Positions 2,172 through 57,585 of a stretch of 64,000 nucleotides of DNA are shown here, one piece after another. Origin of the DNA: Octopus vulgaris (lineage: Eukaryota); assembly GCA_951406725.2 (NCBI GenBank), contig OX597818.1, positions 75,268,001-75,332,000 on the forward strand. The letters run 5' to 3'. Below the pieces are notes generated by a model. It made no database searches. It saw only the letters and a list, made by a program, of their open reading frames with translations, and was not told the DNA's origin. Every line of letters begins with the position of its first letter. The first letter of the stretch is position 1. Made by a program: the position numbers and the translations under genes.

Positions 2172-2477
2172 TATATATATATATAGATACAATACCAATA
2201 TTCCTCTGAACTTTTTAATAATTCTATCTGTAAACTGTTTTTAGCATTTTCTTATTATTATCAAATAATGTATATATGTATTGTAATCTTTTGTGCCCAA
2301 TATTTTAATGAACTTGTTAAATTGTTTTATATTTTCCCAAGATTTTCCCTTTTAAACTGTTTTTAACATGTTATTATTATCAAAGAATGTATAGATGTAT
2401 TGTAATATTTTGTGACAACCAGTACCTAACGCAACAAAGCTTTTACATGTTACTTTTGACAATCTTTTTCTAAAAAA

Positions 2478-2581
2478 GTGAAACCGGTCAAGTAAATAAC
2501 ATCTTTTAAAATTGCATTTTCAAACCTTAGTGAAACCGGTCAAGTAAACAAACATCTTTTAAAATTGCATTTTCAAACCTT
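2478..2581 (+). repeat. ~52-bp tandem duplication
   Basis: GTGAAACCGGTCAAGTAAA..CATCTTTTAAAATTGCATTTTCAAACCTT occurs twice; a looser duplication lies at ~2232-2295 and ~2355-2414. Confidence 0.8.
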
Positions 2582-2658: not shown

Positions 2659-2940
2659 GAGGGCATTATTACACATAAATGCCGCACGCTAGGAGGGACT
2701 CTTAAAGTCATAACTACCAAATATAAACAAATCGTCATGATATATCTTGGATTCACTTCACTGAAGAGCAAGGGACGCGGATAATTGCGTTAATTGCGAA
2801 ATCACAGGTGATATGGAGCTAAATTCTGTTTTTAAATGACTCGCTTCGAGAATTGCATTCGGTACGATTTGTTTATATTTGGTAGTTATGACTTTAAGAG
2901 TCCCTCCTAGCATGCGGCATTTATGTGTAATAATGCCCTC
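2659..2940. mobile_element. MITE with 77-bp terminal inverted repeats
   Basis: 2659-2735 is the reverse complement of 2864-2940 with 1 mismatch; TA-rich flanks; no ORF. Confidence 0.85.
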
Positions 2941-3135: not shown

Positions 3136-3170
3136 CGTAGGAGTGGCTGTGTGGTAAGCAGCTCGCTTAC
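3135..3170 (+). mobile_element. 5' head of SINE family S1, interrupted
   Basis: GTGGCTGTGTGGTAAGCAGCTCGCTTAC matches the head of intact S1 copies (e.g. reverse complement of 16505-16535); similarity stops abruptly. Confidence 0.75.
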
Positions 3171-4978
3171 TTCCGCACATGCGCATTGGTGTTTTGCTTC
3201 AACACTTGAACAAGGAGGACATAAGCTAGTGTGCTCCGTCCTAAAACTGAAAATTAAAAAGTCCTTTCGAGGTAGGTGATCTTGTTTGTTTTGAGCTGGG
3301 CGTGATTTATTATCTGGGAATTTTTTTCAGAAATTTCGCCCATCTCTGAGACAATTTCGCCTGCTCTCGGCGGCTATTGTAATTTTTGCTTGTTGAAAAA
3401 ATGTTGGGGGCGTATCCCCGCCCAAAAATTGAAGTTTGTTCCAGTCATTGAAAATTTTTGTGGCCCATTGTGGCGAAGATTCGTCTTCTGTGGATTTAAG
3501 ATTCCAGCTCGGAGTACCAGCCAAAGAAGAGGGCCAGGAGTACCTGTGGCTGGAATTGTGTAGTTGCCATTTGGAACCATATTTTTATTTCTTCCGTGTT
3601 TTTCCTTCTGTTTTTTGAACTGTCCTTTTTGTTTTCTTGTCTTATTTTTTACTAGTTATTTTTCGTTCGGAGATTTGAACTTTCTTCCTCATGGCGATAA
3701 AGAATGGTGCCGCTGCCTTGGACTGGGAGATTTTCCCACCCAAGCAGTGGTTAAAAGATATGGAGGAGAGGACGGTGGTGGTTAGAACTTATTCTAAAGT
3801 TCTTGATTCCATCACCGTCTTCCCAAAACCAGTTATAGAAAATGAACTAAAAGACTATTTGTCCTCTGTGAAATACATATTCCGTGGTGTCAAACATGCA
3901 ACTGTATGGTTGCTGTTTGACAACCGGGAAAAGACTCGCAAATTTGTGAGTCAGCCTTTAGGGGGCAACGAAATTCTGTTCCTCTCGTCGTACTGCGGGA
4001 GGAAATTAATAAGAGCCTGGGTTTGTGGGTTACTCCCAGGCACCGAGGTGGGTTGGATTGAAGATACCATCCGACGGGGACTGGGGGATAGCGGGCCCAG
4101 GCTCTTAAATGTAAGGGTATTGCCGGCGGTTGATTGGGAAGGGTCAAAAGCGATTTTGACCCTGTGGACCCCATCGGCCGCAACAGATCTGGTTTTTTCC
4201 TGATTTTTTTTAAATGGCTGGCTGCAGGTATCCGATGATACTTGAGGGACGTCCCCTCAAGTGTCACTCATGCCTGCAGCCAGGCCACATTAAAAAGAAC
4301 TGCCCCCAGGACCATGATAAGGTCCTGGAACAGTCACTGGATGTCACCTCCCCTACCCGGTCAAAGGGAGAGGTAGATGTGGTTGAGGATGCTGAAGCCT
4401 CCTCAACTCAAAAAGGATTAAAAAGGAAGAAGGATCCTAAGGCTTCGGAGGGTGGGGGAGTTCCACTCTCCCGAAGTCAGGAAGAAAAGAAAAAAGAAAG
4501 AAGAACGGGTCATCGCAGGGGGGAGATGATGTGCCGTCTGCATATCCCGAATTTGTGCCACACACGGTGGAAAAAACGACCCCCACCCTTAAAGATGGTG
4601 AATTAATTATCTTTTTCTACAAGGGCGGAGAGGTGGAAAAAATAGTAAAAGAACACAAAGACAGTAGATATGCCCTTCACACGGGATCCCGAATGGCCTC
4701 CGCAGATAGCTGTGGGAGTAATAAGGTTTCCCTTGTGGGTAAGGCTTAAAGGATTTGGAGAGGAGTGTCGCATATGGCCGTGTGGCCCTTACACGACTTA
4801 CATGTCCTACATGAGTGAGGCATGGGAAATGGCGGGATATAGGAACTTAAGCGGCATTGAAGATAATGATGAATATATCGATGGATATATCGATGAGCAG
4901 GAGGTGATATAACCTCGTTAGAGGGTTTGAAACTTCATCTTATTGTATTATTTATAGTGGTTTATAACCTCAATTGTG
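3171..4978 (+). mobile_element. Tx1/L1-type ORF1-bearing element A (3' terminus not visible)
   Basis: 5'UTR and ORF homologous to element B (24993-27110); ends in (TA)n. Confidence 0.75.
3691..4912 (+). pseudogene. Frameshifted Gag-like ORF1 with CCHC zinc knuckle
   Basis: ORFs 3691-4203, 4214-4606, 4531-4749 and 4670-4912 join; ILEGRPLKCHSCLQPGHIKKNC knuckle, K/E-rich linker, extra C-terminal domain. Confidence 0.85.
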
Positions 4979-8555: not shown

Positions 8556-8995
8556 ATGGACGAAAACAAAGACGCTGAATCTAGGATAACACCACCAAAC
8601 GAAATAAAAAATTAAATTAAAGAAAGGGCTATTGTCTATAAAGTATACAATGTAGAGAAAAAAAAGATTTGAACACCTGGAGGAAAACACAATCGAAAAT
8701 TGTCTTGGTGCGACTATGAAAGATATCAAGTATCTAACCAGAGGCGGTAAATTCGCCACAATAGAAGCAAGGTTCCAGTCAACGGACTGTGCAAGGGAGT
8801 ACTCGACTCGAACCTTGAAAAGTGGAAATATTTTATTTTTACCTTTATATCTGGGACGTAGGACGTCCCGGATAAAAATTTAAAATTTCCCCCCAGAAGT
8901 AGAGGTAGGCTGGATTAGAGCCACACTTCTATACAGGAGGGAGGACACGATACAATTGATCGAAATTGCAAGAGACGGGCCTACATTTCCAGTCT
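8556..8995 (+). pseudogene. N-terminal fragment of the Gag-like ORF1 family (copy E)
   Basis: Manual translation AIVYKVYNVEKKRFEHLEENTIENCL..KYLTRGGKFATIEARF..LFLPLYLGRRTSRIKI*NFPPEVEVGWI aligns with 55386 ORF (YYNRGRKFATVVVHF..LPSYCGKRAVRIRI). Confidence 0.8.
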
Positions 8996-22856: not shown

Positions 22857-24770
22857 CATCATCATCATTGTTCGACCGTGGTCGAGACAATGGAATTTAC
22901 CATGTTGCGCCAGACTTCACGGTCCATCATAGCATTACGGAGGTCCTGTTGCTGGATGCCTGTATCCCTGGAGATTACATCAAGGTAGGAGAGTGTGCGC
23001 CCTCTGGTGTTGCGAGTAGATGGCTTCCAGAGGAGAAGAGTATAAATTACTTCTTTTTCAGCTCTACAACAATGTCCAGCAAACTGGACTCTCCTACCTT
23101 TCACAAGACACAGGTGGTAATTTCCCATATATTTGCATTTTAGTTGGATGGCGCCTCCACGAGAGATTTTGAGCTCTCACAAGGAGGCGAGTGTAGGTTC
23201 CATCCAACCGCCTCTCAAGCTTCTTTGATAACGTCCAGGTTTCTGAGCCATATAGTAGGATTGGTTCGACTGTGGCTTTGAATATTTCAAGTTTGAAGTC
23301 TCTACTTAGATTTGATGACCAGATCTTATGCATGTCATTACAGGCTGACCAGGCCATACCCTTTCTAGTTAGAAAGTCTTTTCCAGATGATGATATGTAT
23401 GACCCAAGATATTTATAATCAGAAACCATATTTAAAGGTGCACTGTTGAGAGTGTGGATGATGCAATCACTGTTGGACAGGCACTTGTTTATGTATTCAG
23501 TTTTGGTCTCATTGAGGTAAAGACCTACACAATTTGAGGCTTGTTCAAGAGATTGTAAAAGAGACTGGGCATTGGAGAGAGAATCACTGATAAGAGCGAT
23601 GTCGTCAGCAAAGTCAGTGTCTGTCAAGTACTCAGCTGGGTGTCTGGAACTTCTTCTTGGTTTTATTTCAAAGCCCTTGCCAGAGATGGTATCAACTGAC
23701 ATACGTAGCACATAATCAACAACAATGATGAAAAGAAATGGGGCGAGTGTGTCTCCCTGCAGTATTCCGGCCTCGATCGAGAAAGATGATGTTTCTCCAT
23801 CAGGGGTTAAGATGGTTGAAGACGTATCTGTGTAGAGGACCTTGATGGCAGAAATAATTTTGTCTGGTATCCCATAGAGCTTAAGGATTTCAAACATCTT
23901 GTACCTATCTACAGAATCGAACGCTTTAGAAAAGTCTACAAATACCATTGCAAGATCGCGATTAAATGCTTTTGATTCTTCAATAAGTCTGCGCAGGCAT
24001 AGTATCTGGCTCAGCGTTGAGCGCCCATGTCTGAATCCATTTTGGTTCTTTCGGAGCAAAGGTTCAACAAAAAGGACAAGACGATTTAGGATCAGTTTGT
24101 TGTACAGTTTTGCAGCAATTGACATTAGAGATATGCCCCTGTAGTTGGTGACGAGGGACAAATCGCCTTTTTTGGGTATTGGAATGATTTGAGATTGGTG
24201 CCAAATCTTTGGAGCGACAAAGGTGGAAAGTGTGTGGTTGCAGAGGTTAAGCAAAAGTGTGTGAAATCTATCATCCTTCCAAATCACAGCCGGAATGTTG
24301 TCGGGACCAAATGCTTTCGAGGCTTTTAGTTGCTTGGTGGCTGCTGTTAGTTCAAATATGGTAAAAGGGGAGGTGTTGATGTCCAGCGTGTCTGATATAG
24401 GCACACTTGGGAGAGTAGGGTTATCAGGGATTTTGGCATTCTTCCCAAGGAGGTTTTTAAAATGGGTTGACCAATTTTCTAAACGTTTCTTAGCTGATCC
24501 CCCTTTAATTCTAATTGATGACCCAGAATTTTTGCCTGATAGGTCTTTGATGGATTTCCAGGCGAGATGGTGTTTTTTACTAATGTGCTCTTTCGATAGT
24601 TTACTAATTTTGCCATTGATAAATTCGACCTCGGCGTTCAAGTAAGCCTCATCAAGATTCTTCCTGGCAGCTATGAGTTGGATCTTCAGTGACTGGGATG
24701 GAGAACGGTGGTAAGCTAGTGATATAGACTTTAGATGGTTTCTGGCTTCGATGACATTTGGGGAATTAGA
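22857..24770 (-). mobile_element. 5'-truncated RTE-like LINE with (GAT)n tail and 10-bp TSD
   Basis: TSD TGGAGGGTAT at 22847-22856 and 24792-24801; long RT ORF. Confidence 0.92.
23094..24770 (-). CDS. Non-LTR reverse transcriptase (N-terminally truncated, frameshift near 23100, C-terminus in 22865-23128)
   Basis: GPDNIP, NYRGISL, QNGFR, FVDFSKAFDSV, GILQGDTLAPFLF, FADDI, YKYLGS, LLYGSETW. Confidence 0.9.
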   Translation of the reverse strand, partial: SNSPNVIEARNHLKSISLAYHRSPSQSLKIQLIAARKNLDEAYLNAEVEFINGKISKLSKEHISKKHHLAWKSIKDLSGKNSGSSIRIKGGSAKKRLENWSTHFKNLLGKNAKIPDNPTLPSVPISDTLDINTSPFTIFELTAATKQLKASKAFGPDNIPAVIWKDDRFHTLLLNLCNHTLSTFVAPKIWHQSQIIPIPKKGDLSLVTNYRGISLMSIAAKLYNKLILNRLVLFVEPLLRKNQNGFRHGRSTLSQILCLRRLIEESKAFNRDLAMVFVDFSKAFDSVDRYKMFEILKLYGIPDKIISAIKVLYTDTSSTILTPDGETSSFSIEAGILQGDTLAPFLFIIVVDYVLRMSVDTISGKGFEIKPRRSSRHPAEYLTDTDFADDIALISDSLSNAQSLLQSLEQASNCVGLYLNETKTEYINKCLSNSDCIIHTLNSAPLNMVSDYKYLGSYISSSGKDFLTRKGMAWSACNDMHKIWSSNLSRDFKLEIFKATVEPILLYGSETWTLSKKLERRLDGTYTRLLVRAQNLSWRRHPTKMQIYGKLPPVSCER

Positions 24771-24791
24771 AGGTATATCAGGAGGGTATAA

Positions 24792-24870
24792 TGGAGGGTA
24801 TATCAGCCAAAACGTTGTCTTAACAACAAACAAGATGAGGACAAATATCCGTCAAATGTAAATAACGTGC
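24792..24870 (+). mobile_element. Right part of hammerhead-bearing SINE tail
   Basis: TATCAGCCAAAACGTTGTCTTAACAACAAACAAGATGAGGACAAATATCCGTCAAATGTAAAT matches reverse complement of 41740-41810. Confidence 0.85.
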
Positions 24871-24953: not shown

Positions 24954-24955
<2 letters not shown>

Positions 24956-24992
24956 CACAGGCGTGGCTGTGTGGTAAGAAGCTTGCTTACCA
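24954..24992 (+). mobile_element. 5' head of SINE S1, interrupted
   Basis: GGCACAGGCGTGGCTGTGTGGTAAGAAGCTTGCTTACCA. Confidence 0.85.
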
Positions 24993-27110
24993 GAAGCCTA
25001 CTTCCCACTGCGCATGTGTTGGTGTCAGTGTGCGCATGCGTTTTTGTCAGCGTTGTGCGTATCACCGAAAGAAGTAGCCAAGCTGTGTACAGCTGGAGAA
25101 AAAAGAAGTTCAACTGTAAGTTAAGACTTTTGTTTTTAGGGTCTAGTGGGGGTTTGTTGTTTGCGGTAAATATTTTTGTACAAGCAAGTAGTCCTCACTG
25201 GATTCTAAACTTTGGTCTGCCTGTAGTTGAGCAAAAATGGTTCACGTTAAGTGAATTTTTTTTCTCACTTAACTGTGAGAATTGTTGCTTAGGGACGTAT
25301 CGCGCCTCCTGAAAATTTGTTCACTTTTTGTGAATTTTTTAAATAATTGTGAGAATTGCTGTTTTGGGGGAGTGTCTCACCCCCGAAAATTGAACATCTT
25401 GTATACCAATTTTTGTGAAAGTTGTTTCCCAGTCGTGGCGTTCCGGGTTCGACCTTGGTCGGAAGATGATTTTGCTGTGTTTTTGAACTATTGACTTTCC
25501 TTCTACCCTTTTTTGACTTTCTTTTTTCGTGAATTGTTTTGATTTTCTTCCTTCCATTTTATTGCGACTTTCTGTGATTTCTTTCTTTTTCTTCTTTCTT
25601 TTTAAGTTTAATTTTGAACTATTTTCGAACTGTTATTACAAAAAAAAACATGGCAATGAAAAAAGACAGTGTTTTCGAGCGGGTAATTATACCACCCAAA
25701 CAGTAGTTAAATGACATTGAAGAGAGGACGGTGGTGTTGAAGGCTTACTCCAAGTCGCTCGACACCATCGCCCTAATTGAAAAGACTAATTGAAAAGGAG
25801 TTGGCAGAGTATCTGCCGACACCCCTAAATAGGCTCGCTAATTTGTGGGCCAGCCCTTAGAGGGCAAAGAAGTTTTGTATCTTCCCACGTATTGTGGGAA
25901 GCGGTTGACAACAGCTTGAGTCTGCGAGTTGCCACCCGGAATAAAACCCGAGCGGATAGAGGAGACTATCCGCCGGGGTCTGGGTGGCAGCGGAGCCAAG
26001 GTCCTTAATGTGAAAATTGTTCCTGTGGCTGATTGGGTTGGGTCAAAAGCTGTTTTGACCCTGTGGACCCATTCAGCCAATCTGGTTATGCCAGATTTTT
26101 TTGAAAATGGCCGGGTGCAGGTACCCGGTGATTCTTGAGGGTCGCCCCCACCCCCCACCCCACCCAGGTGTCATCGGCTATATAAAGAAAAACTGTCCCC
26201 AGGAACAAAGTAAGGTCCTGGAACAGTTGGTTGAGACCGCTGTAGAAGAGGGAACGAAGGCGGTCGAGGAGGCGGAGAGCTCTTCAAAGAAGAGCTGCAA
26301 GAGGAAGAAGGTGAGCAACAATGGGTGCTCACCGAAGGATCCTAGGGATAAGGGAGGGGAGGCGATTCTCCCTACCACGGAGGAGACGCACCCTCCCTCA
26401 GGTGAGAAAAAAAAGAGGAAGAGGAAGAGAAACGGGTCATTGCCGGCAGTCGGTGATATAGTACCGGAATGTCCCGAAACCTCGTCGATGGGGGCTGTGC
26501 CACTGGCAGGGGAAGAGATACCGTCGGTGGGAATTGTGCCGCCAACAGCAGAAGTGACTACCTCGTCCCCGGACGAAGACGAATTATTGGTCTTCTGCTA
26601 CAGAGGCAGAGAGGTGGAGAAGGTGTTGCAAAAAGCACTATAACGGAGTACCTTTAGCCTGCACAGGGGATCCCGAATGGCCTCCGCAGATAGCTATGGA
26701 GGTCATAACGTTGCCCGTGTTGCTTAGGCTGCAGGTACTCAACGAGGAATATCGCTTGTGGCCGGGCAAGGACGACACGGCCCCCGCTTTGTGCTTGAAT
26801 GAGGCGTGGGTGATGGCGGAGGATGGGGTCACAAGCGATGTTGGGAAGGAATATGGATAGGAGGTTGAAAAGCTTCAATGTTATTGAAAGTTCCTAGTTT
26901 GGAAAAAAGGTTAGAGGCTTAGTGCCTCATTTTGTGAACAATGCTAGAGGTTTGTTGCCTCATGAATAATATAAGAGGTCAATGTTCTGGGGAAAGAACG
27001 ATCGGTGGGCGTCGCTTTTCCCCCCATTAATCATCATTTTCATTTTTCATTTCATATAACATGTCTGTGTCCAACCCGCAGCTTCCTATCTCTATGTAAG
27101 GCCTTTATGG
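24993..27110 (+). mobile_element. ORF1-only Tx1-like element B
   Basis: Homologous to element A; ORF1 followed within ~210 bp by a Tx1-like tail (CTCTATGTAAGGCCTTTATGGC); no ORF2. Confidence 0.78.
25650..26897 (+). pseudogene. Decayed Gag-like ORF1
   Basis: IEETIRRGLGGSGAKVLNVKIVPVADWVGSKAVLTLWT and MAGCRYPVILEGRP align with A; knuckle degraded; frameshifts. Confidence 0.85.
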
Positions 27111-30844: not shown

Positions 30845-30845
30845 T

Positions 30846-32266
<1,421 letters not shown>

Positions 32267-32267
32267 A

Positions 32268-32506
32268 CTTTCTTTATTGGCCACACAGGGCTGAACACAG
32301 AGGGGACAAATACAAATGAAGAGCTTTTCTTTTCGTAGATGGAAAAAGGAAAAGGAAGAAAAAGGAAACAAATGTAAAATTTCGATCAAAATGGATCGTG
32401 TATCATAGAAAGAAATATTTTTTTTAAATAGTAAGAAACAAGATTTGGTTCATTCGTGGAAAGAAAAGCCTACAGAAAAGACCAAGGTAACCTCAGGCAG
32501 GGAACA
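32268..32506 (-). mobile_element. Second Tx1 3'UTR fragment in (GATA)n
   Basis: Homologous to 30846-31090; ends CAGCCCTGTGTGGCCAATAAAGAAAG. Confidence 0.88.
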
Positions 32507-39247: not shown

Positions 39248-40994
39248 AATACTTCACACACATATACATCCTCATTCGGTTCGCTCGCTTACAGAGTTGC
39301 ACAAGTTTACATGCAAACGCATACATACACGACTGCATACACATAAACACGTACACACATGTAAATATACACACATTGTCATGCATGCAAGTTGCATTAA
39401 ACTACACACAAACACACAGATATTCCATATGACCAATTGGCAAAAATAGACACGCAGCAGCACGCTCAAGAGAAAACAACCAAAGTTATATCCACATGAA
39501 ATGTAAAAAAAAAAAATTAACTAAAATCAAAATAAAAAGTATACAAAATGCTGAAAAACATGTTTTATTAACTTTTCGTTAATTTCCCAAAAGAACCGCT
39601 CGTCTATTATAAGGTTTCAAAACTGTTTTACTATAATTCCAGGTTGCTGACACAATTTCATTTCATCTGCGAATGTTTTTTCGATTTTGGTGGTCTTCTT
39701 TTTTCTCCTTTTTGTCTTTTTGTTTTGATTCTCTCTTTTTTATATTTGTTTTATCCCTTTATTTTGTTTGTTTCTTTTCTTATTTTCATTTAACTTTAAG
39801 AAAGTTTTAAAACAAAATAATTTTTTAACGTTTTAATGGGAATGGGTTTATTTTTTTATAATTCCTTTTTTTATAATTCCTTTTTTATTAACAATGAACT
39901 AACATGGTGGGGGCGTCTACTGTAGTGTACTACTTGAACTTTGAAGTTGCAAATGTTTTGTTAATTCTAGATTTAATCTTTGTGTTTTTTTGTTTTGTTT
40001 TGTGTTTTTGTCTTTGGTGGGGTTTAGGGGTTTTTTGGCCTCTCATTCCTTTCAACATCCAATCTAATTTACTATCCCCATATAATGACGGCCGATATAA
40101 ATAGCTTATTGGTTGGTTGGTTGGTTTCTTTGATTTCAACAGTTACGCTTCACATCGTATAAATTTAGGGCGTGAGATGATGAAAGAGAGATACGGAGAG
40201 ACTGAATGGAACAGATACAGGATGAGTACACATACTAGGTTTGGTGGCACACAATGCGTAAAAGAACGTCCCTCGCGCGCACACCCACTGTCTCACACAC
40301 ATATACACACTAAGGGAGAAAGAATCATAGAGAGGGGAGGGGAAGGAGGATGAGGGTTGGGAGGCGGGGAAGAGGGGGAGGAGAAGAAGATGGGTGAAGA
40401 GGAAAAGGGGAGGAGAGGAGGAATAAATGATGGAATAGTTATGGAAGGAGTTACACAAATGAAAACTAAGAAGTTGTTCTCCATAGACAAAATACAACAG
40501 TGATTAGCTTATTCACGTTCGAATCAGCCGAAACGAATTTAGAATTTATATGTACGTCATTGTTTTGCTTTATTTAATTTCATTTTAAAATAATAATTTT
40601 GTTGCTGTTTGTTTTATTCTGTTTTTGGTTTTTGTACTTTAGGGTTTTGAAAATTAGAATTCATTTCATTATTTTGTATAAGCAGCAAGACAACTGATAA
40701 AAGTTATTATATTATGTATGATACATTTTCTGATAAAACTCTTGGTGGCAAAATATGCTTACAAAGTTACCTGTCATATGTAGTCCCTTGTCGATAATAT
40801 ATATTGATCTAGTTATTTTACTATAAGTTATTATTCAAATCACTTACCAAAAAACTACAACACTGAAAATATTATAAATGATGGTAAATAACACGGTTTT
40901 TTAAAATCTCATTGGAGTTGGTTTTGAATGTTCGTCGTTCGATATGTCTTTAGAAATTTTATGGAAATATCTGCCTATTGTATAAGTCAATAAA

Positions 40995-48398: not shown

Positions 48399-48490
<92 letters not shown>

Positions 48491-48504
48491 ATATATATAT
48501 ATAA

Positions 48505-48743
48505 CGAATTATTAGTGATCAGCAGTGATTATGTACGAGCAGAATTAGGTAAGTTGAAATATGTTTGTCACATATTTCAACTGCTAAATGGCAAATACAC
48601 GGCAGCACTGTGGATAAAAATCTCTCTTATGGTAAAACGATGTAAAAACACCAGGTCCTTTCAGTGTCGCCATCTATTCGGAATCTCAGACATCGTTGTT
48701 TCAAGCTTCTTTGCTATTTTCGATGAGATGTACCTAACAGATG
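48505..48743 (-). repeat. Retrozyme-like repeat, left part (unit ~337 nt together with 51288-51385)
   Basis: 48505-48700 is directly repeated, diverged, at 51386-51584. Confidence 0.75.
48683..48729 (-). ncRNA. Degenerate type I hammerhead-like fold
   Basis: ATCTCA-[TCGAAAA]-TAGC-aaagaa-GCTT-GAAA-CA-acga-TG-TC-TGAGAT: stems I-III and GTC site present, core deviates from CTGANGA. Confidence 0.45.
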
Positions 48744-48929
48744 ATTCTTAATTACGATAATTATATATCACCCATAGATGGGACAACACAGGACATTGCA
48801 AACAAATAGTGCGTTTATGAGTTCTTTTTAATGTGGTCTTAAAAATAAGTTTTACAAGTTTACCCTTGGCCATTAAGCCCAACGGCTACACCATACTTTT
48901 CTACCATGGATGAGATTAAGTAGGGCCAT

Positions 48930-49998
48930 TCATACCCAACTTCCTTGCCACTTTTTCCATCTTTTTCCGAATATACTTCGCGACAGGTGTCTCCTCTCCA
49001 GCCCTATTTTGCTCTTCAGATGATATCTGAAGTAATATAGGAAACCAGAGCCGGAGATGAAAATTCCCGTCGCGACTCCTTTCATTCTAGTTTTCCATAC
49101 ACACTCTTTCAATATTGTGACTGTGCATAAAAAAAACATGCCTCACCTTTCTTTGATAGTCCGGGTAGCGGTACAATCTCGATCATGGAATCAGCAGACA
49201 GATGTACGCTTCCTAGATGCGACAGAACGTGTTCTACATAAATTATCAAGCCCGAAATCTCCGGATACTGTACAAGGGCGTGCAGAACGGTTTTATCATC
49301 CTGTCCGCACCTCGGGCATGCCAGTGGCACAGAAATCCATACCTAGACAATTTGTCGCGAACAGGTAACGCACTCCTATAGCACTGCCAGGTCAGGGATT
49401 TCTGGTAGTTATCCAGAAACAGGTTGGCTAGCTGGCCCTCACCGAGCCCCAGATCTTCTCTTTCTGACGTCCCCACTTAAACTCTACCAACCAGGTCCGG
49501 ATTAGGGCCTCCACCCTATCTGCCACCTCACTCCAATTCTTCTCTGTCTGAGAACCCGGTCCAAACCAGATTCCAATCAATTTAACAGGACCTTCCATCC
49601 AGTGACCCACGAGACTAGAAGTTATCGTCTTGGCACTCAAGGCGCCGAGCCGCAAGCCGATGGACTTGTCCTTGTTAATTTTTGCCCCTACCACCGCCTC
49701 GTATCCTTTGATTGCATCCTCTACACAAGGTAGCTGAGCTTCATCGGACAAAGTGATAGTGACGTCATCAGCATATGCAGAAACAGACTTACCACATCCC
49801 AATTCATTGGGGATGCCCCCCAAACCCTCCAACCGCCGCAGCAGTACATACAAGAGCCAGTACATACAGAAGCGGAGACAGGGGCACCCCTGACGAACCA
49901 AGCGCTCGATCTTAAACGGCACCGACGGGTATTCGTTTATCTGGACTGTAGATTTGATGCCGCCGTAAATGGCAGTGATCCAACCACGGAAGTCTGGT
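48930..49998 (-). pseudogene. Tx1 ORF2 relic (RT second half and C-terminal zinc finger)
   Basis: VRQGCP, VSAYADDVT, GAKINKDKS, WQCYRSALPVRDKL, CPRCGQDDKTVLHALVQ; homologous to 31353-31949. Confidence 0.9.
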
Positions 49999-50934
49999 AA
50001 ATTCCATTTCTTCCTCTGTGTTTTGAATTGTATCTTGTGTTTTTCCTTGTGTTTTTTCTTGTGCTTTTACTTGCGTATTTTCTTGTGTCTTGTCTTTTCA
50101 GTTCTTGTTTCTCCCGTCTTTAGTGGTTCTTTTTGGGAATAGGCTTCACACTTTTTTCTTTAGGCTTGCATTCAGAGCGGACGGGACTCTTTTCGCCGCA
50201 CTTAAAGCAGCGTGGCCTACGCCTCTATACTGCAACTCCCACACTCAGCCCCTCCCCTATATATATCCTATCGAGCAGTCCTTCTAGTACTTCAGAGGTG
50301 GCTTGAACCACGATCTCGAGGGTTTGCCCCTTCCAATTTTCGGCCTCTTTCTTCTTTATCTGTAAAATAGACATTTTTCCTCCATATCATAAGTTATAGC
50401 AGCTGCTATCCAAATTACGTTGTACCTGCTGGTATATCTTCTACGGTAATTTTTGCCGTTCTTCTACCCAAATACGTTGGTAGTAAAATTATTTCCTCAT
50501 TTTTTAATGTTCTTGTTGATAACTCCTTGGCCGTGTTATCGTTGGCAAACTCTGCTTCCACCGTGGCATTCTTTCAACCACGTCCACGTACACGATTTTC
50601 TTCCATATAGGTGCCAGATACCTTTCAATTATTTCACGTTTACAAGTTACAATTCTTTTTTCCTTTAGGTTATAGGTTTTGTATACCACTGTTCTCGCAG
50701 CTATATTTTGTACAATATCCTGCGGAGGGAGCAACTTCGTATCATTTCTGTTATTTTTTACGAGATTTTTATAGTTAATTGAGCCCTCGTCACCTCTAGC
50801 GTTATCATATTACCGCCTACGGCGGCCGAAAGACTGGGTTTTTCCTTAAACACTTGTTTTACATTATCAGTTTCTTTGCTTGGTATGTTTTCCATTTCTG
50901 GGAAACACTCCTTAGGCATTACGTTGAATTCCAT
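49999..50934 (-). pseudogene. Gag-like ORF1 relic
   Basis: AARTVVYKTYNLKEKRIV, GRRTAKITVEDIP, RPRCFKCGEKSPVRSEC degenerate knuckle. Confidence 0.82.
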
Positions 50935-51268
50935 AATGTAATTTTACAGAAAAATAAATTCCTTAAAAGGGAATATACAAATTGACAAAAATATTTTTTG
51001 GCAAAAGATTTTTGCTAAAATTATTGACAAAAATAATATTTTTTACTCTGCAAAGGGTAAAAGAATCAAAGAATTCAAATCACAAAACGTCCAATAGCTG
51101 TTGTTTCCAACAATATCAAAAATTTAACAATTTTCTGCCCCGCCGGGCGAAAATGGCAGTTCATAGATTAACAGCAGTTCAAATTTCAACAGGTACAACA
51201 AACAGTACAATAACATAGAATCATTAGATAATAGCAGATAGAACTCACAAACAAGCAACAGACAAAAG

Positions 51269-51630
51269 GAGATGTACCTACGAGATGCAACTCTAAACGG
51301 ACTTATAAAGCTACAGCTTTATGTATAACTCACTCAACACATTGACTGATTTGCGCTAGTATATCGCCCGATCGAAAGAAAATAGCGAATTATTAACGCT
51401 AAGCAGTGTTTATGTATGAGCAGAATTAGGTAAGTTGAAATATGTTTGTCACGTATTTCAAGTGCTAAAAGACAAATACACTGCAGTTACCATGGAGAAA
51501 GCATTTCCCTTATGGTAAAAAAGGTGTAAACACCCGGTCTGTTCAGTGTCACCATCTATTTGGAATCTCAGACATTGGTGTTTCCGAAAGCAGCCACTAT
51601 TTTCGAAAATAGCAAAGAAGCTTGAAACAT
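51269..51630 (-). repeat. Retrozyme-like repeat, right part, ending in a short inversion
   Basis: Repeat of 48505-48700; 51603-51629 is the reverse complement of ~48697-48723 and overlaps the palindrome CTATTTTCGAAAATAG. Confidence 0.75.
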
Positions 51631-54935: not shown

Positions 54936-55208
54936 TTGTTCGAAGGTTTGTAATGGACGCAGGTTCGTGTGTCAAATAGCTAGTTTGAGGCGGTGGCCTC
55001 TTGGAGCTAATCAGCGACAGCTTTAGTCTAATATTTATAAGACTGCCATATTAGTATGGCGATAACTATTAATTTCCAGTAACGCTGCCGTAATCTCCTT
55101 TAGAGAGACTTAGTAATTTTAATATTTCTATTATTGAAAGTAAGTGGATGTATTCCACTGAAACTAGGTAAATAAAGCCTTCGAACTGGGACGATCAGTA
55201 GCGACACC
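54936..55208 (+). repeat. Retrozyme-like repeat, left part (unit 365 nt together with 57356-57447)
   Basis: 54936-55073 repeated at 57448-57585 (138 bp, 3 mismatches); many hairpins. Confidence 0.85.
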
Positions 55209-55385
55209 CGCTTGTTTTTGTTTTTGGTGACTGATATTTCTGATTGCGTTATTCGTGTGTAGCTGTATTTTTTTTGGCATCGGAAAGATTTTGACTACGT
55301 TATTGTGGTGTCGCGGTTCGTGAGATCGAATCCGGTGGTGGAAGTTGTTGCGGCGTGGTGAAGTTTTTTAGATTTTTTCTCGAAC

Positions 55386-56708
55386 ATGGAAAGCCAGACG
55401 TATGCGGGTGCAGCAGGCAAGGGCCTGGTTGCGAACGAATTGCAGTTAGAAGAAGTCATCGTCGAGAAGGAGACGTTGAACAAGTATTTCGACAGCTTGA
55501 AGAAGGAGGGTGACTGTGTGAAGGTCACACCACCCGACGAAGAAACGGAAGAAGCGGAGAAACGGATTATAACGTACAAAACATGGAGTGTGACTTCGAA
55601 AAAAATAGAAGTGACACCGATAGAGGAAGTTGAATGCTCTCTTAAAGAAATAGAAGGAGAGTCTACCTACTATAACAGAGGTAGAAAGTTCGCAACGGTG
55701 GTCGTCCACTTTAAAAGTGAAGACGAGGCGAAGAAGAACGCAACGAAAATTTTAAAAACTGATAGATGGATGTGTTTACCAAGCTACTGCGGGAAAAGGG
55801 CAGTCAGAATAAGAATAAGCAAGATTTCGCCCGAACTAAATATGGAAAGGATATTAGCAGGAGTGGTGTTTAATTGCAAGGAAAACGTGGAAATGTTGAA
55901 TGTCGAAAAATCAAAAGATGTAAAGTGGTGGGGTTATGCAGTGCAGGCGTTAGTCCACATTACAATGCCTGACCTGTATAATATCCCGGAGGAGTTGGTG
56001 TTCCCCGACGAGACACGGCTCAGAGTCGTGGTGGAGGGGAGAGTGTGTCACAAATGCAAAATAAGAGGCCACATGAAGGATGTGTGTCCGCTGAGAGAAG
56101 TACAGGAGAAAACGATAGCACTGGAGACTTCAACGAATGAGTTGCAAGATGCGTGTGTGGAGGAGGAAGAAATCGTTACTACAGATAATGCGGAAAGTGG
56201 TGAAGAGTTGGAGAAAGAAAATAGAAAAAGAACGCTGGTGGAATCACCACCTAAAGAACAAAAAAAGAAGAAGAAAAAAGCGAAAAATAAGATTACTGAC
56301 GAGAAGGAAAACCGAACGGGAGAAGAGGATACAAAAGCAAAAGTGAGTGAACCACTAAAAGCAGTTGAAGAATGGGACAGAAAATTGAAACAGCAGTTGA
56401 AAGATAGTAAGAGAGGAGGAGGACTCAAGGGAAAGAAATACAGAGTGGCAATGTTATACGACAAGGACTTAAATTTGGAAAAGATGTTGCCAGGTAGGAA
56501 AGACTTAATTAGAGTAAAGTTGACCCCAGGAATATTTGATAAATATTGGAAGGCGGTAATAGTGGAGAAAGAGACAGTACGCAAATTGAAGGAATATAGC
56601 GCATTTGAATGGTTATATTTACGTTATGACACCTTACCAGTTGATGTGGATCAGGAAGGCTTACAATGCCTGACCTGTATAACATCCCGGAGGAGTTGGT
56701 GTTGGTGA
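55386..56708 (+). CDS. Gag-like ORF1 protein, 440 aa, CCHC zinc knuckle, K/E-rich linker, extra C-terminal domain
   Basis: Open frame; VVVEGRVCHKCKIRGHMKDVC; homologous to four other copies in the window. Confidence 0.85.
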   Translation: MESQTYAGAAGKGLVANELQLEEVIVEKETLNKYFDSLKKEGDCVKVTPPDEETEEAEKRIITYKTWSVTSKKIEVTPIEEVECSLKEIEGESTYYNRGRKFATVVVHFKSEDEAKKNATKILKTDRWMCLPSYCGKRAVRIRISKISPELNMERILAGVVFNCKENVEMLNVEKSKDVKWWGYAVQALVHITMPDLYNIPEELVFPDETRLRVVVEGRVCHKCKIRGHMKDVCPLREVQEKTIALETSTNELQDACVEEEEIVTTDNAESGEELEKENRKRTLVESPPKEQKKKKKKAKNKITDEKENRTGEEDTKAKVSEPLKAVEEWDRKLKQQLKDSKRGGGLKGKKYRVAMLYDKDLNLEKMLPGRKDLIRVKLTPGIFDKYWKAVIVEKETVRKLKEYSAFEWLYLRYDTLPVDVDQEGLQCLTCITSRRSWCW

Positions 56709-57130
56709 AGGAAAACCGAACGGGCTAAGAGGATATAAAAGCGGAAGTGAGTGAACCGGTAAAACTAACAGCAGAGGAAGAATGGGACAGAAGAAGGGCA
56801 GAGCAGATGAAAATTTGTAAGAGAGGAGGATGACCCAAAGGAAAGAAACACAGAGTGGTAATGTTATACGACAAGGACAAAAATACGGAAAAGATGTTGG
56901 CAGGTAATAAAGGCTTAATTAGAGTAAAGTTGAACCCAGAAATATATAGTGACCTGTGGAAGGCGGTAATCGTGGAGAAAGAGACAGTGAAGAAAATGAT
57001 GTATGATTATAGTGTATGTGAATGGTTATATGTACGTTATGACACCTTACCAGCTATTGTGGATCAGGAGAGCTTAATAGAGTATATAACAGATGAAGAT
57101 CCAGGCATTACAGAGGAGCGCCCGACGTAG
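56661..57130 (+). pseudogene. Internal duplication of the ORF1 3' part carrying the likely original C-terminus
   Basis: 56661-56703 copies 55960-56002; 56707-57070 copies 56303-56660 (diverged); ends EYITDEDPGITEERPT*. Confidence 0.85.
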
Positions 57131-57355
57131 CAGAGTAATATATGTAATTATAAAATTGTAAATTGTAAAATTGTATTTTAAATGAAACTGCGAGTTTTGG
57201 GGGACTCGTAAGCCGTTCCATCTAATCCATTATAAATATCCATTTCAATTCATAATTTTCGATTTTTTTTACTTTATGTACCCCACGTCCTGTCTTGTAA
57301 CGTCCCTCTTAATTCGGGCCTTAGTGCCTATAATAAAGATTTCAGTAGCGACACC

Positions 57356-57585
57356 TGCAACTCCGGCTACGCTGCATTGATAAGGGGCAACAACCCTGAA
57401 ACATGTCTGTAGCTGTCTGACTGGCAGGATGAAGCGGCTGACCTCCCTTGTTCGAAGGTTTGTAATGGACGCAGGTTCGTGTGTCAAATAGCTAGCTTGA
57501 GGCGGTGGCCTCTTGGAGCTAATCAGCCACAGCTTTAGTCTTATATTTATAAGACTGCCATATTAGTATGGCGATAACTATTAAT
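57356..57585 (+). repeat. Retrozyme-like repeat, right part
   Basis: Hammerhead segment followed by the second 138-bp direct repeat. Confidence 0.85.
57371..57413 (+). ncRNA. Type I hammerhead ribozyme motif (core mutated)
   Basis: GCTGCA-[TTGATAA]-GGGG-caacaa-CCCT-GAAA-CATG-TC-TGTAGC; two transitions from CTGATGA; short palindromic stem III. Confidence 0.7.

Follow-up and report, generated by a model that had tools for sequence, protein, structure and literature searches.

Target-specific LINEs of the Tx1 clade have already been described, and their known targets are transposons, U2 genes and microsatellites (PMC4494074, PMC4640811). Xenopus Tx1 inserts into the piggyBac element Tx1D and the crocodilian Tx1-Mar into Mariner-N4_AMi; Tx1-8_Crp and Tx1-4_AMi target LTR elements, Keno targets U2, and Kibi and Koshi target microsatellites (PMC4494074). 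In that paper, the criterion for a target-specific family is more than 20% of flanks, and transcription from flanking sequence is discussed for SINEU and R2.

Animal retrozymes are hammerhead repeats of 150–450 bp (PMC7229834) and have been argued to derive from Penelope pLTRs (bioRxiv 10.64898/2026.07.22.740005). Penelope-like insertions typically take the form of partial tandems that carry an inverted piece at the 5' end, and for some of them a bias towards microsatellites is reported (PMC8557442); the hammerhead satellite 2 of newts has an snRNA-type promoter (PMC2220036). For Octopus vulgaris, a repeat annotation of 2026 reports 13 recently active L1-Tx1 families; the words hammerhead and ribozyme are absent from its main text (PMC13282606).

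In this study, a stretch of 64,000 nucleotides of Octopus vulgaris (contig OX597818.1, positions 75,268,001 to 75,332,000; hereafter the window, whose own numbering is used throughout) was analysed around a LINE insertion designated element D. Element D resembles the target-specific Tx1 LINEs in being probably of the two-ORF APE-RT type, in the size of its target site duplication (TSD) and in having another multicopy element as its target. It differs from them in that this target is a hammerhead-bearing repeat, entered at the 5' edge of the fold.

Characterization of Element D

Element D (48744–51268, minus strand) is a decayed, internally deleted LINE with both termini, delimited by its TSD, by the skip in empty sites and by domain matches. 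The 19-bp TSD with two mismatches that a first-pass annotation of this DNA had reported was confirmed on the minus strand, with the 5' copy at 51269–51287 (repeat comparison) and the 3' copy at 48725–48743 (folding). The chance expectation for such a pair is approximately 0.0008 in the area searched, and insertion with a TSD, a trait of the Tx1 clade, is present.

Remnants of ORF1, of the reverse transcriptase (RT) and of the C-terminal part of ORF2 are kept, and the endonuclease part is absent. The ORF1 remnant (50130–50935, minus strand, approximate limits; tblastx and translation) contains stops, frameshifts and a degenerate zinc knuckle. It showed 26–36% identity to ORF1 of the neighbouring element C (tblastx) and also matched pieces at 3.7–4.0 kb and 8.6–8.9 kb of the window (tblastx). 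An isolated ORF1 fragment at 8562–8973 (plus strand) was nearest to that of D, with 37–47% identity (tblastx). The RT fragment is located at 49488–49997 (minus strand; Pfam RVT_1, E = 8.5e-7; tblastn) and the frameshifted C-terminal ORF2 remnant, with a cysteine/histidine motif, at 48957–49458 (minus strand; comparison with a full-length relative). Residues 1–607 of ORF2 of the full-length relative, comprising the endonuclease and the N-terminal RT, had no match in D (tblastn), and by a second deletion approximately 167 codons are missing ahead of the C-terminal remnant. This copy is dead. A weak Rfam match to UnaL2 (E = 1.3) was treated as chance. Sequence searches of the index of scanned DNA with the two ends and the RT of D yielded no look-alikes, and for viral contigs the result was 0 of 47 candidates.

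Affiliation of Element D

Element D is a LINE of the L1 group and probably a member of the Tx1 clade; the first assignment is taken as established and the second as likely, since the comparison included no named Tx1 reference. Neither the cluster look-up nor the Atlas supplied a Tx1 name for D. Its relatives are APE-RT proteins of 1,143–1,161 amino acids (among the 120 of 141 matches listed), and the full-length ones carry PF03372, PF00078 and PF13966. The full-length relative P0004 scored 413–442 bits against three U2-gene-inserted elements, 339–340 bits against two 5S-adjacent elements and, with another program than that used for the U2 and 5S scores, 215 bits against human L1 ORF2p.

An RT tree of 104 rows and 175 columns was constructed with a midpoint root and without named Tx1 or L1 references; 34 near-duplicate array loci, loci with fewer than 110 aligned residues and all proteins but 17 were left out. 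In this tree D, on a long branch, grouped with P0001–3 (100/98) inside a 22-row clade that includes a cuttlefish protein (100/91). It stands in the tree with cephalopod-like elements, outside the groups formed by the elements associated with U2 or 5S.

Among the relatives in metagenome and MAG contigs, L002, L006 and L007 are Keno-like elements inside U2 genes, and L008 and L119 adjoin 5S genes. Loci L081–L117 and L122, from record CAXXMW01 (labelled as an Arenicella MAG), are head-to-tail arrays of intact two-ORF LINEs with a period of approximately 6.4 kb; they share one common 3' region, differ in their 5' ends and ORF1s, and their units are joined by linkers of 15–20 nt. The RTs of these arrays group with the cuttlefish protein, and the contigs, filed as a bacterial genome, are thus likely animal host DNA.

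The Repeat around Element D

The direct repeats reported on either side of D were recovered at 48501–48702 and 51382–51584, with 84% identity over 204 nt. The downstream partial unit (48501–48743, minus strand; repeat comparison, high summed depth) ends at a (TG)n(AT)n microsatellite (48400–48500), which marks the end of the repeat insertion. The upstream unit (51288–51606, minus strand; repeat comparison and folding) starts with a 5'-truncated hammerhead (51606–51553), in which the 5' strand of helix I is missing. Next to it, an inverted 27-nt copy (51603–51629, plus strand; sequence comparison), comprising the hammerhead core, stem II and GAAA, folds back at a TCGA palindrome. A tandem repeat of approximately 337 nt had been proposed; the unit of 337 nt was upheld, and the array was not, as the window contains approximately 1.7 units ending in (AT)n(AC)n.

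On its sequence features, the D repeat is a partial dimer with an inverted piece, Penelope- or retrozyme-like. It shares with the animal non-LTR retrozymes a unit of 150–450 bp, a type I hammerhead, a partial tandem arrangement, AT richness and the absence of protein. It departs from them in having that small number of units, a single complete fold and a variant core. A multicopy, non-coding unit of 150–450 bp with a type I hammerhead, as defined for non-LTR retrozymes, was found (337 nt; paralogous empty sites), and one defining feature is lost at the D locus, where the inversion truncates the upstream hammerhead. The repeat units of C and D show no significant similarity, in line with what had been noted (local alignment, p = 0.90); what their downstream parts have in common is mostly the hammerhead region (p = 0.014). 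The most covered part of the D repeat (48520–48590 and 51405–51470) contains a hairpin; a consensus-like 5' splice site is also present there, on the other strand than the hammerhead. The window as a whole is AT-rich animal DNA with many microsatellites.

Empty Sites and Contig Depth

Contigs of three of four public runs joined 48737 to 51282, skipping exactly 2544 nt, that is, D plus one TSD. The support consists of five contigs with 103 letters on the short side (51282–51384 joined to 48737). These contigs are 87% identical to the window locus and are therefore paralogous repeat copies. They demonstrate that D was inserted into a pre-existing multicopy repeat, and consequently the flanking repeats are not D's own ends.

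Summed contig depth, which does not represent copy number, was 260–580x the single-copy flank over 48500–48717 (approximately 580 and 260 in the two distal repeat bins) and 7–20x over the ORF1 and tail of D, with a minimum of approximately two single-copy equivalents at the large deletion of D. The contig tables of the four runs list 40 of 1,704 variant rows and 15 of 336 joints; among the 24 of 2,603 loose contig ends listed, none fell at either D junction. A non-reference letter 7 nt inside the D tail was present in at least 11, 5, 10 and 14 contigs of the four runs. Its distances to the contig ends fit a contig start at 48719 in three runs and, in the run without the outer flank of the locus, one contig spanning 48698–48822. 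As judged from contig-end distances, not from target letters, these contigs may be junction-spanning paralogues of the D family.

The Hammerhead-like Fold

The minus-strand fold claimed beside D was confirmed as a complete type I hammerhead-like fold at 48671–48743 (descriptor against shuffles; minimum free energy, MFE), with stem I at 48729–48724 / 48688–48683, the core at 48723–48717 and predicted cleavage 3' of 48689. It passes the type I layout, with three helices, core, 3–8 pair, GAAA and a UH site. A stricter first type I descriptor gave one match in the window and missed both this fold and that of element C. The relaxed descriptor was written after the motif had been seen, and for this reason it was also run on 60 block-wise shuffles, which gave a mean of 0.017 matches and a maximum of 1, against four matches in the 64-kb window (2451, 2756, 57372 and 48728). 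U3 occurs with A8 in three of the four. The fold of element C (57354–57428, plus strand; descriptor and folding) has the core TTGATAA (U3-A8) at 57377–57383.

Rfam reported no hammerhead at either site at E ≤ 10, and none among the 150 of 274 matches listed for the window. By MFE, the downstream fold of D was more stable than expected by chance (z = -2.4; 4 of 200 shuffles as stable), and MFE gave no support to the fold of C (z = -0.9) or to the upstream copy at D (z = -0.3).

Regarding the remaining matches, 2451–2494 (plus strand) is a U3-A8 hammerhead-like fold with the core TTGACAA and a palindromic stem III; a 53-bp tandem at 2477–2581 forms a partial tandem copy there, and the whole looks like a Penelope pLTR remnant. 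Upstream of this third U3-A8 hammerhead there is no such insertion or Tx1-like end. The fold at 2756–2818 (plus strand) has the canonical core CTGAAGA and a long stem II and lies within inverted repeats (2637–2735 / 2864–2960).

Both direct repeat copies at D read TCGAAAA in the core, as had been pointed out in the form of a caveat against the fold, the expected core being CTGANGA. The core of the D fold (U3 C4 G5 A6 A7 A8 A9) corresponds to U3-A8 plus U4C, accompanied by a U10.1-U11.1 mismatch, and each of these has a natural precedent. U3-A8 is a compensatory pair with approximately 1,300 matches in Schistosoma (PMC4209133) and is active in vitro (PMC3088659). U4C lowers activity considerably in vitro and still supports viroid infectivity, and the U10.1-U11.1 mismatch is tolerated (PMC3088659). 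The caveat is thus largely resolved by published variants, U4C being weak though viable; these precedents leave it as an argument for lowered activity, not against the identification.

The fold is similar to the Penelope pLTR hammerheads of Schistosoma Cercyon (PMC4209133) in its U3-A8 core and in the inverted and partial copies. It differs from them in the added U4C and in being of the canonical rather than the minimal type, with a 6-bp stem I that has a looped extension and with a short stem II; an adjacent Penelope ORF was not identified. Between the two direct copies, the 36 core and stem positions contained one substitution and one insertion, and the 17 loop positions seven changes (p = 0.003, or p = 0.08 when loop II is counted as one event). 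Loop 1 presumably resembles that of the Schistosoma ribozyme.

Junction Register and Upstream Motif

The extended helix I was folded from the first base of the D TSD; base pairing with the distal 3' arm involves the first five bases of the TSD and does not extend beyond the TSD edge. An overlap of the TSD with the 5' arm of stem I had been described; the 3' TSD copy corresponds to the 5' strand of this extended helix, taking in the distal stem, loop 1 and five of the six nucleotides of stem I, so that the 3' junction of D is the first base of the fold. By simple arithmetic, the chance of landing within 3 nt of the fold edge in a 337-nt unit is approximately 2%.

Element C (55209–57341, plus strand), 4 kb from D, is an ORF1-only relative with a 14-bp TSD (55195–55208 / 57342–57355). 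The 3' part of its ORF1 carries an internal 360-bp duplication with 82% identity (56303–56663 / 56707–57076). The contiguous distal helix of its fold begins at position 13 of the TSD, MFE adding 2 nt past a bulge, and the C junction is consequently 12 nt farther upstream of the fold than that of D. The predicted cleavage site lies 55 nt past the D junction and 66 nt past the C junction.

From the two loci, the first-pass annotation had proposed a Tx1 lineage that targets repeats next to the ribozyme with the same geometry. On the evidence of the TSDs, the descriptor and the repeat alignment, the two stand as separate insertions of related L1-group elements, each a short way upstream of a hammerhead fold, in repeats that are unrelated to each other. 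The array was not sustained, nor was the common register, as the D TSD covers +1 to +19 of the extended fold and the C TSD -12 to +2; the TAGnnACAyC motif said to be shared by the TSDs also failed, its best match of 7/10 being reached in 10% of shuffles (p = 0.10). Between C and D, the element heads (p = 0.07) and the 160-nt tails (p = 0.35) showed no significant similarity, and the last 60 nt gave p = 0.02. At the loci of relatives in other collections, the descriptor detected a hammerhead in 0 of 122.

The sequence TA(C/A)ATAAAGC, a candidate promoter element, is located at 51316–51325 (minus strand) in the D repeat, ending 28 nt before the fold, and at 55169–55178 (plus strand) in the C repeat, its end there being 28 nt ahead of the contiguous distal helix. 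The two are 9/10 identical at equal distance (p = 0.001–0.011, with the anchor chosen after the fact). A variant empty repeat retains the length of the spacer between motif and fold (30 vs. 29 nt) and has different letters in it. Compared as a whole over 75 nt, the upstream regions of C and D showed no significant likeness (p = 0.12). The motif also occurs once at 40576, apparently by chance and with no fold seen downstream, and it is absent at that place in three animal U2 upstream regions. By its position the motif could equally be a TATA-like box or a PSE; literature searches brought up no paper on a mollusc PSE. In related LINEs, the 3' end is likewise made up of the word AATAAAG. The word ATAAAG in the CAXXMW01 head-to-tail arrays was rejected as promoter support, being the 3' end of those elements.

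Other LINEs in the Window

Elements A (3143–4978) and B (24955–27100), both on the plus strand, are related ORF1-only Tx1-like pieces that start right after the same head, of approximately 30–40 nt, of a common SINE-like repeat; we take this head to be tRNA-like. No TSD was identified for either, and a SINE-targeting or SINE-headed family is possible. Element F (30845–31958 and 32267–32500, minus strand) is a 5'-truncated 3' part of ORF2 (zf-RVT) in (GATA)n tracts, accompanied within the same tract by another short 3' end, and suggests a microsatellite-targeting sister family. Elements F, A and B suggest several target-specific lineages in the window. Additionally, an open RT frame of 585 aa, belonging to a different type of LINE (23094–24851, minus strand), was found inside an (AAT)n-associated repeat, at whose ends a 17-bp duplication was read by eye.

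Origin of the Insertion

It was observed that D entered a repeat that already existed, that its TSD has a defined register on the fold, that element and fold are co-oriented, and that the motif is found at 28 nt in both of the unrelated repeats. We consider it probable, with moderate confidence, that the lineage of D is site-specific and homes in on the presumed start of transcription in retrozyme-like repeats, from whose promoter it would be transcribed. The predicted transcription start accounts for the junction register no less well than the ribozyme does. The endonuclease, from the then-intact element or acting in trans, would nick the bottom strand at the 5' edge of the fold, reverse transcription would be primed at the nick, and the top strand would be cut 19 nt downstream. 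TA(C/A)ATAAAGC would be part of the upstream promoter, the fold would begin at the transcription start, and the LINE would be transcribed by read-through from the promoter of the repeat. A nick at or just before this predicted start would place the 5' end of the LINE 2–19 nt behind it. The hammerhead would mark the target without being needed for integration. Helix I is restored by the downstream TSD copy, so that the structure of the ribozyme behind D remains complete; what this ribozyme loses to the LINE is its upstream region. Directly read junctions of such insertions number only two. Relatives are site-specific, namely the U2-inserted elements and element F in its (GATA)n tract.

A more active role of the ribozyme appears unlikely. 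In ribozyme-coupled retrotransposition, the hammerhead would cut the read-through RNA 55 nt past the LINE, and the target-identical tail would anneal to the nicked strand and select the site. The coincidence of the D TSD with the 5' strand of helix I, the survival of the fold, the equally intact fold behind C and the cleavage positions after both junctions agree with this. However, any insertion at or ahead of the 5' edge leaves the fold whole, the relatives manage without a ribozyme at their U2, 5S and microsatellite targets, and the U4C change lowers activity considerably in vitro (PMC3088659). Excision in cis between two ribozymes would also be precluded at D, since the upstream hammerhead is without the 5' strand of helix I. 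To the same low degree, we regard as plausible a LINE lineage that uses the hammerhead of the host repeat as its 3'-end processing enzyme, with the promoter of the repeat gained and the ribozyme rebuilt behind the LINE. If this were true, the 55-nt target-identical tail would guide the next insertion, and switching between unrelated retrozymes, as in C and D, would need little change in the endonuclease.

It is decidedly doubtful that one old insertion created a composite of repeat and LINE that was then moved as a unit by Penelope machinery. C and D differ both in the element and in the repeat, and the lowest depth, at the large deletion of D, indicates that the composite was not amplified. 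On the other hand, the ends of the locus are Penelope-like in showing an inverted 5' piece, a partial tandem and a microsatellite (PMC8557442), and the repeat copies differ by 16% and the TSD copies by 2/19, figures that set no order of events. Finally, an unspecific or loosely selective LINE that landed twice in abundant AT-rich repeats is very improbable: the repeat is indeed abundant by summed depth and the window holds approximately six Tx1-like pieces, but two of the four hammerhead matches in 64 kb have a co-oriented, TSD-bounded relative 0–12 nt from the fold edge, and the C and D repeats together fill only approximately 1.1 kb of the window.

Significance

In agreement with the first-pass annotation, no paper describing ribozyme repeats as a LINE target was found among the titles and the beginnings of abstracts listed by full-text searches. 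What is new with the D copy is a further target repeat, the exact helix-I register and the UCGAAAA core, a natural triple variant; a target family is added rather than a mechanism.

Among natural retrotransposons that are site-specific and guided by an endonuclease, LINEs of the Tx1 clade make up the main set. For them, retrozymes would constitute a new class of target, with a parasite of a parasite landing at the predicted RNA start of its host repeat. With two related families that occupy two unrelated targets of little common sequence, it could be tested directly whether the site is chosen by protein, by promoter-bound factors or by RNA tails, and the insertion points would mark the unmapped start sites of octopus-type retrozymes.
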